Positions 39,458 to 43,228 are shown, counted from the stretch's first letter. The stretch: DNA of 64,000 nt from Alphaproteobacteria bacterium (GCA_028281325.1 JANQKC010000015.1:20282-84281); one strand, 5' to 3'. Notes: generated from the sequence alone by a model not told the origin. Made by a program: numbers and translations.

Positions 39458-41122
39458 ATGCTAGTCCGGCGCCTTCGGCTGACGACCGGCCTCGTCCTGG
39501 CCGTCTACCTCATCCTTCATTTTTTCAATCATGCCGCGGGGCTGCTGTCGCTCGACGCGATGGAAGCGATGCGCAAGACGGTTACCCTGTTCTGGCACAA
39601 TCCCATCGGAACGGCGCTGCTGTATGGATCGCTCCTGACGCATTTCCTGCTGGCGTTGTGGTCGCTGTATCAGCGCAGCAATCTGCGCCTTAAGCTGTGG
39701 GAAGCGATCCAACTGGGGTTCGGTCTTTTGATGCTGCCGCTCGCCGCCGGCCATATTATCGGCACGCGCGCGCGGCTTGAGCTTCTCGACATCGACCTCA
39801 CCTATCCGCAACTCGTGACGATCCTCTGGCAAAACCCTGCGGGGACCGCGAAACAGATTCTGCTGATGGCGATCGTCTGGGGCCACATGGTCGTCGGACT
39901 GCATTTTTGGCTGCGGCTGAAGACATGGTACCCGACCGCGCAACCCTACCTGCTGCTCGGCGCGGCCCTGTTGCCGACGTTGGCGCTGATGGGTTTCGTG
40001 CGCGCCGGTCTCGCGGTGGATGCGGCCAGCCTGGTGCCGGGATGGACCGACGCGCTTCTCGCCCCGCTGCAACCCAGCGACCCGTCTATGGCGGAAGTCC
40101 ATTCCAGGCTGGAGCCGATCGCCTTGTCGGTGATGGCCGGCCTTTTGATCGTCGTCCTCGCCGCCCGACAAATCCGTCGAATGGTTCGCAGCCGGATCGG
40201 CGCCTATCGGCTGCAAATGCCGTCGGGCGCAGTGGTCACCGCATCGGTCGGCTCGACCATGTTGGAAGCGATCCGCGCCGCCGGCATTCCGCATGCCTCG
40301 GTCTGCGGCGGCCGCGGCCGTTGCACCACCTGCCGGGTCCGGGTGAGCGACGGCGGGCAGACCCTGCCCCGACCGAACGATACGGAGGCGACGGCGCTGC
40401 GCCGCATCGAGGCGCCGGCAAACGTGCGTCTCGCCTGCCAGACACGCCCGCGCCGGGACATTTCGATCGTTCCGTTGCTGCCGCCGACCGCGACGGCGCA
40501 AGCGGCGCGCCAACTCGGCAGCGTGCAAGGGCACGAACAGGCCGCGGTCATCATGTTCCTCGACCTGCGTGAGTCGACGGCGCTCGGCGAGCGCCTGCTG
40601 CCCTACGACACGGTCTTCATCCTCAACCAGTTCTTCGCCGAGATGTCGGCGGGGTTGCGCGAAACCGGCGGCCACTACGCGCAATTCAACGGCGACGGAT
40701 TGATGGCGATCTACGGCTTGCGGTCGGGCGTCGACGCCGGCTGCCGCGAGGCCTTGGAGGGCGCTGTCACCCTCCACCGGCGGCTGGACCGGTTGAACGA
40801 GACGCTCGGGACCGAACTCGGACAGTCGTTGCGGATGGGGATCGGGCTGCATTGCGGCGAGGCCATCGTCGGCACCATGGGGCCGCCCGACGCGCCGACC
40901 CTGACGGCGGTCGGCGATACCGTCAACATCGCGGCGCGGTTGGAAGCGCTCACCAAGACCTACGGCTGCGCGGTCGTCGTCTCGCAAGCCGTTGCCGAGA
41001 CGGCGGGCCTCGATCTAGGTCGGTTTACACGGCATACCGCGCCCATCCGCGGCCGCGACAAGGAACTTGAAATCCACGCGATCGACGACACGGCCGAATT
41101 GGCCAGAGCTTTGCGGATATAG
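39458..41122 (+). CDS. Class III nucleotide cyclase with His-containing membrane domain and 2Fe-2S ferredoxin (CyaC-like)
   Basis: TM His residues (HFFNH, THF, GHI, GHMVVGLH), CGGRGRCTTC..RLAC, DLR.ST, GDG, GDTVNIAARLE. Confidence 0.9.
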   Translation: MLVRRLRLTTGLVLAVYLILHFFNHAAGLLSLDAMEAMRKTVTLFWHNPIGTALLYGSLLTHFLLALWSLYQRSNLRLKLWEAIQLGFGLLMLPLAAGHIIGTRARLELLDIDLTYPQLVTILWQNPAGTAKQILLMAIVWGHMVVGLHFWLRLKTWYPTAQPYLLLGAALLPTLALMGFVRAGLAVDAASLVPGWTDALLAPLQPSDPSMAEVHSRLEPIALSVMAGLLIVVLAARQIRRMVRSRIGAYRLQMPSGAVVTASVGSTMLEAIRAAGIPHASVCGGRGRCTTCRVRVSDGGQTLPRPNDTEATALRRIEAPANVRLACQTRPRRDISIVPLLPPTATAQAARQLGSVQGHEQAAVIMFLDLRESTALGERLLPYDTVFILNQFFAEMSAGLRETGGHYAQFNGDGLMAIYGLRSGVDAGCREALEGAVTLHRRLDRLNETLGTELGQSLRMGIGLHCGEAIVGTMGPPDAPTLTAVGDTVNIAARLEALTKTYGCAVVVSQAVAETAGLDLGRFTRHTAPIRGRDKELEIHAIDDTAELARALRI

Positions 41123-41127
41123 CGTCG

Positions 41128-41631
41128 CTAGTGAACCCGTTGACCCGCGATCGGTCTCGGCTCGTGCCGGATTTGCGCGTGTATGGTGATTTCCGCATCA
41201 TCGAAGACGTCGGCGACAAATTGGACGGGATCATACGCCAACCGAACCGCCGCCGGATGCAGCCATTCGCCGAGCAGAATGTAGCCTGTCATCTTGTCTC
41301 CCGCCTGCAATGCCGCGACCAACGCCAACATCGTTTGTTCGTCGGAACTCACCGCACGACAGGACGGACAGTTGATCTCGATCTGGCGGCGGGCGCCGGT
41401 CACGACCAGGCGCAGAAAATGATCGAATGCCCCGAACGCGGCGCCGACGGCCGCTTCGTCGAACACCGCCCGGATCGGCGAAACGTCTTTCGGCGCGGCG
41501 CGCATTTGGTCGACCCATTTTCGGACGGACCAGATGGTGAATTGTTCCGCAAACCGCAGCGCCTGAAACGCGACCGGTGGCGGTTCTGCATCCCCGACTC
41601 GGTCCACCGCAAAATCCCGCAAGTCATCCAT
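41128..41631 (-). CDS. Hypothetical protein with a CxxC-(x)-SxDE motif
   Basis: Clean ORF, GAGAGGA SD-like tract before the ATG at 41631, NCPSCRAVSSDEQ. Confidence 0.75.
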   Translation of the reverse strand: MDDLRDFAVDRVGDAEPPPVAFQALRFAEQFTIWSVRKWVDQMRAAPKDVSPIRAVFDEAAVGAAFGAFDHFLRLVVTGARRQIEINCPSCRAVSSDEQTMLALVAALQAGDKMTGYILLGEWLHPAAVRLAYDPVQFVADVFDDAEITIHAQIRHEPRPIAGQRVH

Positions 41632-41686
41632 TCCGTTTTCCTCTCCCACCGTCCCGATCTCGAAAAGACTGTTATTATTTATTGCA

Positions 41687-41705
41687 ATTGCGAGTCATTC
41701 GCAAT
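41687..41705. promoter_or_regulatory. Alpha-type Fur box inside a bidirectional promoter
   Basis: ATTGCGA-GTCAT-TCGCAAT (7-5-7 palindrome). Plus strand TTGCAA(41682)-N17-TATATA(41705); minus strand TTGCGA-N17-TAAATA. Confidence 0.75.
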
Positions 41706-41715
41706 ATATAATGCG

Positions 41716-41806
41716 CATGAAAACTTGCTGATTTGGCGTGGCCTCCCTCCCCAGGGTACAAGCCGCCCACGCGGGCGGGCGGTGTCTTTAACATCGCCCG
41801 CTTTCG
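41716..41806 (+). ncRNA. Candidate Fur-repressed trans-acting sRNA
   Basis: Promoter upstream, GCGTGG/CCACGC stem enclosing CCTCCCTCCCC, then a terminator hairpin with plus-strand U tail; ends approximate. Confidence 0.6.
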
Positions 41807-41810
41807 GTTT
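41775..41810 (+). terminator. Intrinsic terminator of the candidate sRNA
   Basis: GCGGGCGGTGT-CTTTA-ACATCGCCCGC-TTTCGGTTT. Confidence 0.65.
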
Positions 41811-41946
41811 TCGATCGTTTTTTGAAAGTTGAAGGACTTCAGGAGTCGAATGACCCACGCTGAATTGGGTCAACGCACGCATCCGGCAAAAAGAGAGATT
41901 TTGCCCCGTTCATCCACGTCAGGGCAGTGCAACGAGCCCTTTGAGA

Positions 41947-42171
41947 TTAGGATCCCGTGCAGACTTTTTCGACGCCGCCGATCCAATCGGCAACCCGGTA
42001 GTTCGCATCGGCCGGCCCGATCTCAGGATGATGATGCCGATAGACCCGAACGGCCGCCTGGAACGATCCGGCGTCATCCAAGCCGGTTTCCCGGAGGTTC
42101 TGATATGCGTTCAAAACTGCCGTCTTACAGGAGAATCCTTTGACTCCCCCAACTTTTTCTCCGATGCCCAT
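41947..42171 (-). CDS. Small hypothetical protein (74 aa), divergent from bfd
   Basis: SCKTAVLNAYQNLRETG..D..SF.AAVRVYRHHHPE; helical, protein-like pattern. Confidence 0.65.
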   Translation of the reverse strand: MGIGEKVGGVKGFSCKTAVLNAYQNLRETGLDDAGSFQAAVRVYRHHHPEIGPADANYRVADWIGGVEKVCTGS

Positions 42172-42275
42172 GATTTTCCCTGTATTTCCCTTGGCCCGAC
42201 GAAGCGCGCTATGATTTTGCGACATAAACACCGCCCGATCCACCCTATCTTAAGCGGTAAAAAATGAATATTGCA

Positions 42276-42294
42276 ACTGATAACGACTTGCAAA
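42276..42294. promoter_or_regulatory. Second Fur-like box between bfd and the small ORF
   Basis: TGATAACGACTTGCA (reverse TGCAAGTCGTTATCA) in an AT-rich tract. Confidence 0.5.
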
Positions 42295-42363
42295 TAAATT
42301 TCTGTATAGTTATTCTTTTACCAATCGAGTGACGCATCGCGTCGTAACGGGGCTGCACGCCAT

Positions 42364-42546
42364 ATGTATGTGTGTATCTGCAATGCGCTGACGGAAACGC
42401 AGGTCGAGGAGGCCCTTGCCTCCGGCGTTTCGTCGATGTCGGCGGTTTACGAGTGCTTGGGCTGCAAGCCACAATGCGGACGTTGCTGTCAGGAGGTCAG
42501 GTCCAAGCTTCGCCGTATGCAGGATATCGCCGGCGGCGCGGACTGA
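42364..42546 (+). CDS. bfd: Bacterioferritin-associated ferredoxin
   Basis: MYVCICN...CGRC, directly upstream of bfr. Confidence 0.93.
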   Translation: MYVCICNALTETQVEEALASGVSSMSAVYECLGCKPQCGRCCQEVRSKLRRMQDIAGGAD

Positions 42547-42724
42547 TCCAGCCGGGCAGCGGTCGCCGAATGCGCCGCTGCTGGGATGTTGTTGAATACA
42601 CTTGATTCTTGCCGGGACTTCTCGGCGAGACGTTTGTTTATTGTATTTTCTTCTTTAAACGCCAAGGCAATGGCACTAGATTGGAATTGTTAAAATTTCA
42701 GTTTCACCTAGTGCTGGAGGCCTT

Positions 42725-43192
42725 ATGAAAGGCGACACTGAGGTTATCAAACACCTCAATAAAATCCTGTTCAACGAGCTAACGGCAATTAATCAGTATT
42801 TTCTGCATGCCCGCATGCTGGACGACTGGGGCTTCGGCGAGTTGGCCGAGCATGAAAAGCACGAATCCATCGACGAGATGAAGCATGCGGACCAATTGAT
42901 CGAACGCATTCTCTTTCTCGAAGGACTGCCGAACCTTCAGGACCTAGGGAAGCTGATGATCGGCGAGGATCCTGTTGAAATCCTGAAATGCGACCTCAAA
43001 CTCGAAATGATCGCCATTCCAGATCTTCGGGAAGCGATTGCCTGTTGCGAGGAAAAGGCCGACTACGTAAGCCGTGAACTCCTGCGGAGCATTCTCGACT
43101 CCGAGGAAGAACATGTGGATTGGCTCGAAACGAAGCTCAGCCTCGTCGATAAGATCGGCAAGCAGAATTTCCTGCAATCGCAAATGTCCTGA
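42725..43192 (+). CDS. bfr: Bacterioferritin
   Basis: [21 protein letters not shown] (heme Met), [20 protein letters not shown]. Confidence 0.97.
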
Positions 43193-43228
43193 TCGGTCAC
43201 ATCGCGTCGCGCACTATTCCGCCGAGTC

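Follow-up and report, generated by a model that had tools for sequence, protein, structure and literature searches.

Fur-repressed small RNAs (sRNAs) carry the iron-sparing arm in gamma- and beta-proteobacteria and in Firmicutes. RyhB in enterobacteria, PrrF1/2 in Pseudomonas, NrrF in Neisseria and FsrA in Bacillus are all Fur-repressed iron-sparing sRNAs. Alphaproteobacterial sRNAs with C/U-rich anti-Shine-Dalgarno motifs include AbcR, the "cuckoo" family and mmgR/SuhB.

An sRNA induced by iron starvation has been described in Caulobacter crescentus. This RNA, RusT (CCNA_R0199), is 118 nt long, is bound by Hfq, and has a terminator and a seed in a hairpin loop, and it is controlled by NtrYX, not Fur (PMC11005374). 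In the study of Leaden et al., none of the iron-induced sRNAs of Caulobacter had a Fur box in front of it (PMC6120978). The paper of da Silva Neto et al. offers only speculation on sRNAs in the CC0680-0682 region, and it also raises, for Caulobacter, the comparison with FsrA and FbpA/B/C of Bacillus subtilis (PMC3751524), a Fur-regulated sRNA and the small proteins with which it works. A limited literature search, which included these three reports (PMC11005374, PMC6120978 and PMC3751524), found no Fur-operated alphaproteobacterial sRNA. This agrees with the original prediction for the locus described here, which named no established equivalent in the lineage. Because these papers report the iron-sparing arm as missing in Alphaproteobacteria, an sRNA driven by a Fur box in a marine bacterium of the Rhodospirillales type would close a gap that the literature names.

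The DNA analysed, called the window below, is a stretch of 64,000 nucleotides on contig C4 of a 5.1-Mb genome (41 contigs, 62.7% G+C). The stretch is also found among the DNA contigs of runs from coral and marine metagenomes, and none of the listed runs that contain it is recorded as RNA. It holds a candidate that, like RyhB, PrrF, NrrF and FsrA, combines a Fur-type operator over a promoter, a short unit with no ORF, and an intrinsic terminator with a U-tail. As in the RyhB-class setting, the genome encodes Fur-family proteins and Hfq, the latter by an hfq gene. In our main reading, the operator palindrome in front of the candidate would belong to a back-to-back, Fur-controlled divergent promoter, one arm of which would produce an sRNA of about 100 nt from the plus strand. 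We give these two claims a joint probability of about 0.45. The protein-gene arm of the promoter appears well supported by the comparative evidence, and the sRNA arm is plausible, at about even odds.

The operator and the gene behind it

The Fur-alpha-type operator palindrome (41687-41705) reads ATTGCGA-GTCAT-TCGCAAT, with two 7-base arms around a 5-base centre. The perfect 14-base palindrome is present in a single copy among the 275 sites with up to three mismatches in the 5.1-Mb genome. Within the window, one site with up to two mismatches was found against 0.52 expected, which is not significant by itself. Genes for ECF sigma factors, FecR and TonB-dependent receptors are classical Fur targets. 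Close variants of the palindrome in the genome stand just upstream of fecI/fecR/TonB-receptor operons, and the Pfam calls for the genes behind the best variants are ECF sigma factors, FecR-type anti-sigma proteins and TonB-dependent receptors. It is these operons behind the close variants that justify the label "Fur-type box". Together with the four Fur-family genes of the genome, the main homologue being at C14:362147-362503, this bears out the original reading of the palindrome as a Fur box, and it appears to be a genuine Fur-type operator for this genome. Rodionov et al. proposed a palindromic "Fur-alpha box" for Rhodospirillales, Sphingomonadales and Caulobacter (PMC1698941).

Two putative promoters overlap the palindrome. 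The plus-strand promoter (41682-41712) would consist of a -35 hexamer, TTGCAA (41682-41687), and a -10 hexamer, TATATA (41705-41710), separated by 17 nt, and the palindrome fills this spacer as had been predicted. At the level of sequence, the operator therefore lies over the candidate's own promoter. A perfect TATAAT at 41707-41712 overlaps TATATA, but it is 19 nt from TTGCAA. Each hexamer matches the consensus at four of six positions, which is a weak match, and the promoter scan did not call the plus-strand promoter. It may be partly a mirror image forced by the palindromic operator. The putative minus-strand promoter (41676-41704) has a -35 hexamer, TTGCGA (41704-41699), a 17-nt spacer and a -10 hexamer, TAAATA (41681-41676). 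About 38 nt past TAAATA on the minus strand comes GGAGAGGAAAACGGA-ATG of a gene for a 167-aa protein. The two predicted starts are separated by about 48 nt and face outwards. Two-way firing seems usual for the promoter of the 167-aa family, because the divergent partner at the boxes of this family in other lineages is a protein gene.

The 167-aa gene (41128-41631, minus strand) encodes a hypothetical protein and starts with the ATG at 41631 behind the ribosome-binding site GGAGAGGAAAA; the ORF would have 173 aa if read from the GTG at 41649. The box lies about 55 nt upstream of its start. Homologues of the family occur in 33 of the 61 genomes searched, its own genome included. Its own genome also holds two paralogues (C27:96432-96821 and C24:98415-98726), and a Fur-type box stands directly upstream of all three genes. 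At most of the 19 loci listed from relatives, one such box or a pair of them lies no more than about 100 nt from the start codon. Since boxes precede the paralogues and most orthologues, the 167-aa family appears to be a regular member of the Fur regulon across the order, and the comparison shows the palindrome to be the predicted operator of the minus-strand gene. With such boxes in front of the family almost throughout, no sRNA is needed to account for the palindrome. The original prediction had assigned the box to an sRNA promoter. It was right that the box is of the Fur type, but it missed the simplest client, the 167-aa gene about 55 nt away with its mirror-image promoter.

Members of the family, which are about 165 aa long, carry the conserved motifs LRFAEQFTxW and CxxC. 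The 167-aa protein belongs to no Pfam or NCBIfam family, and a sequence profile search of the PDB found no relative of it. The structure model is all-alpha and confident (pLDDT 88.5), and a Foldseek comparison of the model with the PDB gave no fold match (best E 0.88). The Atlas offers only "hypothetical" clusters and a weak lead to DUF6628 (0.89, 11% of members). Single-protein scans of genome and metagenome contigs for close relatives of the gene returned no matches. A search with an alignment of four sequences of the family returned the three genomes of g10, another genus of the same taxonomic family, along with one more genome locus and five loci from metagenomes; among these five, one duplicates locus L009 and another has no upstream region. 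The 167-aa family appears to be a widespread member of the Fur regulon with no known domain or fold match and, independently of any RNA, an unstudied iron-response protein.

Both genes that flank the candidate lie on the minus strand, as had been stated, and both are real genes, with homologues elsewhere. Those of 41128-41649 occur in 33 of 61 genomes. Those of the other gene (41947-42243), which encodes a conserved hypothetical protein of 98 aa and is convergent with the candidate RNA, occur in 12 of the 61 genomes searched, with 73% and 63% identity within the genus. On the far side of the 167-aa gene, a plus-strand gene (39458-41122) encodes a 554-aa protein with a 2Fe-2S ferredoxin domain and an adenylate/guanylate cyclase domain. 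The stop of this cyclase gene (41122) lies 5 nt from the stop of the convergent 167-aa gene (41128), and there is no terminator between them.

The arrangement differs in two genomes of the same genus, G004 and G001 (loci L047 and L048). In these, the cyclase and 98-aa genes converge across a gap of about 25 nt with no canonical terminator, and a CMD-family gene adjoins the promoter of the 98-aa gene. Compared with G004 and G001, the window has two extra blocks. One (41123-41946) comprises the 167-aa gene, the box, the candidate and a fast-evolving spacer (41823-41946) that separates the T-tract from the 98-aa stop codon. The other, at about 42300-43214, is bfd-bfr. The stretch is missing from all four same-genus genomes, and in the two in which synteny was checked, G004 and G001, the whole block is absent. 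Because the block is extra relative to these genomes, the gene, the operator and the RNA-like unit behave as one block of about 825 bp, and the three may move together as such. The candidate had been described as embedded in the bfd-bfr locus. This placement is loose: the start of bfd is at a distance of 540 nt, on the far side of the 98-aa gene, and both blocks are absent from the same-genus genomes checked.

The gene caller, which demanded a third-position G+C of at least 0.72, missed the 167-aa, 98-aa, bfd and bfr genes (41128-43192) and passed their neighbours. That a G+C-based caller missed all four hints at an atypical composition of 41128-43192. The interval from the 98-aa gene to bfd contains a second AT-rich, operator-like element, TTGCAACTGATAACGACTTGCAAAT (42262-42295). 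This element differs from the palindrome by more than two mismatches, and its same-genus counterpart reads ATTGAGAACGACTTGCAAT, which is nearer to the box.

The candidate RNA

The candidate non-coding RNA (41716-41822, plus strand) would be about 97-107 nt long, beginning near 41716 by prediction and finishing with the T-tract. Its first hairpin (41736-41772) pairs GCGTGG (41736-41741) with CCACGC (41767-41772) across 25 nt and encloses the C/U-rich CCTCCCTCCCC (41742-41752). In the minimum-energy fold, CCCU pairs with AGGG in the loop of this hairpin, so that part of the C/U-rich stretch is taken up in pairs. The plus strand of 41716-41826 folds with -44.1 kcal/mol (z = -3.2), compared with z = -1.6 for the minus strand. 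The intrinsic terminator (41773-41822, plus strand) has a stem-loop at 41773-41803 with a strict stem at 41775-41801. The arms of the stem (41775-41785 and 41791-41801) are 11 nt long with one G-T pair and are followed by TTTCGGTTTTCGATCGTTTTTT; the T-tail, which reaches 41822, is interrupted (TTTCGGTTTTCG). The terminator is confined to the plus strand; the minus strand has no T-tail. The original description of this part of the locus was accurate: the stem around the C/U-rich stretch is there, as are the 11-bp GC hairpin and its U tail, which the scan reports as a plus-strand terminator-like site at 41773-41803.

A loose terminator scan found two sites in 2 kb against 2.4 expected, which is not above chance, and a strict scan was therefore run. 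A site qualified with a perfect stem of 10 or more pairs, 7 or more of them G-C, a loop of 3-8, and 6 or more T among the 9 bases that follow. Counting both strands, 72 sites in the genome satisfied this definition, the candidate's hairpin among them; in a block-shuffled genome there were 2. In a crude gene set, 35 of the 72 stand no more than 100 nt after a co-oriented gene. The candidate's terminator is an orphan, as had been claimed: the nearest plus-strand gene ends 653 nt upstream. The genome contains two pairs of a box and a strict terminator no more than 300 nt apart, and only this one has a box with fewer than two mismatches.

The statement that (MR)MKTC is the only ORF stood in part. 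MRMKTC is present, but a 233-aa plus-strand ORF (41131-41832) is present as well; it runs antisense through the 167-aa gene and is taken as spurious. The region 41706-41946 has no conserved ORF, no pseudogene remnant and no second copy in the genome. An origin of the unit as a repeat, a mobile element or a pseudogene was rejected, there being no second genomic copy and no translated similarity to the divergent partner genes.

Strain variants of the locus come from contigs of three metagenome runs (X4, X5 and X6) over the stretch, with 40 of 110 differences listed. Across the 277 nt of 41546-41822, contig 7 of X5 shows 6 differences, and its match is clipped exactly at 41822; the overhanging part of the contig looks like the sequence that comes next in the window, but with indels. 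Contig 5 of X4 (41645-42700) has 81 differences and 12 gaps. None of the 40 differences listed lies left of 41831, and 41823-41926 contains at least 17 substitutions and at least 5 indels. Contig 13 of X6 (41644-41871) has 13 differences, of which three, among those listed, fall at 41834-41865. Judged from these differences, the candidate is conserved to much the same degree as the coding regions (about 98%), and the spacer past the T-tract decays. Divergence between strains is patchy, at about 12% in the bfd region and about 1% in the 167-aa gene. For this reason, the low divergence up to 41822 could also come from a recombination boundary at that point instead of from constraint.

Conservation of promoter, seed and terminator had been set beforehand as a test, and at the sequence level it was not found beyond the strain variants; the layout alone recurs. 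A search in 60 relatives matched only the box part of the locus. BLAST of 41706-41826 against 27 other genomes of the family gave no homologue, with all matches at E 0.04 or worse, and a covariance model built from the single sequence (R2) did not find the candidate in 90 other genomes of the order. A comparison with Rfam likewise returned no characterised family: the 64-kb window gave 0 matches at the gathering score, and 41600-41960 gave, at E up to 10, four chance-level matches, none to an sRNA family.

Targets were sought by duplexing two exposed segments of the RNA with 3718 start regions. The ranking used crude gene calls and duplex energy alone. The mean energies of the top 20 (-19.8 and -32.9 kcal/mol) lie within the range of 10 shuffles each. 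On this scale bfr ranks 3386 and 1955 of 3718, bfd also ranks low, and the start regions of the 167-aa and 98-aa genes are unremarkable (ranks 404 to 2389 of 3718). Duplex folding of the whole RNA was discarded as a way of finding targets, as it produced unrealistically long duplexes.

Similar layout in relatives

The closest orthologues of the 167-aa protein (43-49% identity) are found in g10 and on metagenome contigs. Six distinct sequences among these have a box followed by a unit of about 95 nt on the divergent strand: L008:1326-1424(-), L009:2023-2120(+), L010:2032-2128(+), L033:950-1047(-), L034:231-328(-) and L035:839-932(-). The unit keeps a 5' hairpin even though its sequence differs, together with a conserved single-stranded stretch and a conserved terminator, and it folds with z of -3.5 to -5.0. 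By our own reading of the sequences, it stays with the box while the next gene varies, being AhpD-like at some loci and CorA-like at one. A model built from the g10 unit (R1; 98 positions, 22 pairs) scores 70-81 bits in three g10 genomes. A further match in genome G010 (33 bits) was rejected, being an ordinary terminator that follows a hydrolase-like ORF and has no box near it.

The same model gave no match at 41700-41830 of the window even at E up to 10, and a MAFFT alignment of the window unit with the g10 unit aligns only the box. On these two results, homology between the window unit and the g10 unit was rejected. What recurs is a layout and not a demonstrable homology, because R1 misses the candidate. 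In a more distant relative, a Fur-like box is followed by structured sequence of about 170 nt, with an orphan terminator (L022:1964-2153, plus strand). This locus matches suhB/mmgR (RF00519) below threshold, at 22.8 bits where the gathering score is 41. The g10 unit itself matches no Rfam family: in the g10-unit loci and L022, Rfam at E up to 1 gave matches only elsewhere, at L008 634-683 (F6) and in L022 (suhB). The g10 layout beside orthologous genes may be regarded as a second candidate for a Fur-regulated sRNA, better conserved than that of the window.

Alternative readings and known systems

In the main reading, Fur would leave the operator at low iron, and the mirror-image plus-strand promoter would then also fire. 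The predicted product is a non-coding RNA of about 100 nt, extending from about 41716 to 41812-41822. It would have a single-stranded 5' end, one hairpin showing the C/U-rich stretch, and a strong intrinsic terminator with a U-tail, which is the usual build of an Hfq-dependent base-pairing sRNA. Its most likely action would be to pair with G/A-rich ribosome-binding regions of mRNAs, resulting in less translation in iron shortage. An iron-sparing role for the RNA is a guess from analogy and gains no support from the target ranking. As a whole, the original prediction of a Fur-repressed sRNA keeps its Fur box, its orphan terminator and its absence from Rfam; against it, the box is explained by the gene and sequence conservation is missing.

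It is quite possible that the box serves the 167-aa gene only, and that the plus-strand hairpin is a terminator or insulator rather than the end of a functional RNA. The hairpin might stop read-through from the cyclase gene or incidental divergent transcription before it collides with the 98-aa gene, or it might be a leftover of the inserted block. The 167-aa gene explains the box in full, and the block is an insertion relative to the same-genus genomes. The absence of a terminator between the cyclase stop (41122) and the 167-aa stop (41128) fits a hairpin with such a duty, as does the A-tract before and the T-tract after the g10 hairpin, which could let it act as a two-way terminator for a convergent gene. 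The candidate has no sequence conservation beyond strains, and no target signal. However, the same-genus cyclase and 98-aa genes converge across about 25 nt with no canonical terminator, so the cyclase gene seems not to need one. The stretch from box to terminator is also structured (z = -3.2) and is kept in the strain variants while the spacer decays. In g10, moreover, the 5' hairpin is kept through sequence change, and the unit stays with its box when the convergent gene changes.

Two further readings accept a plus-strand transcript and give it another function. A local role, in which the RNA tunes the divergent gene or interferes antisense with the 98-aa gene on read-through, is improbable. 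It would suit the linkage of an RNA unit to the 167-aa gene in two or three lineages and the end of the 98-aa gene 125 nt past the T-tract on the opposite strand; the interruption of the T-tail makes some read-through conceivable. On the other hand, the terminator is among the strongest in the genome, pairing with the 167-aa and 98-aa start regions does not stand out in the target ranking, and the divergent transcripts share no sequence, since transcription would run outwards from two predicted starts with about 48 nt between them. That the unit encodes a tiny protein is hardly credible. Both possible frames, MRMKTC (ATG at 41712) and a 35-codon frame (TTG at 41727), exist in the sequence, but neither has a ribosome-binding site. 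By our own reading the g10 units share no frame or peptide, and tblastx of 41706-41946 against the fetched loci (own copies excluded) and the genome gave only noise (E 0.03 or worse).

The main reading, a divergent promoter with an sRNA on its plus-strand arm, can be extended to a portable two-part module for iron starvation. A single back-to-back Fur promoter would drive a protein of an undescribed all-alpha fold and a partner sRNA that work together in the manner of FsrA and the Fbp proteins, and the RNA half would be replaced or re-invented by lineage while the layout is kept. This extension is unlikely, but if true, it would be the first Fur-operated sRNA system described in Alphaproteobacteria.

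Compared with known systems, the locus has a mixed character. The operator of the candidate is common to a divergent protein gene, which is the better-supported client, unlike those of RyhB, PrrF, NrrF and FsrA. The candidate also differs from these sRNAs in having no sequence or structure match to any Rfam family and no signal in the target scan. Its likeness to RusT is one of general description, and RusT is controlled by NtrYX whereas the candidate has a Fur-type box. The C/U-rich CCUCCCUCCCC in the apical part of the hairpin upstream of the terminator recalls AbcR, the cuckoo family and mmgR; unlike these, the window has no Rfam match, and the motif of the candidate is partly paired in the fold. 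The combination of a candidate sRNA and an uncharacterised protein gene under one iron regulator resembles FsrA with FbpA/B/C, although, as far as tested, the 167-aa protein does not share the small, basic character of the Fbp proteins. If the sRNA is real, the known Fur-repressed sRNAs would gain a new member that is restricted to its lineage and comes from a bacterial class in which none is established.
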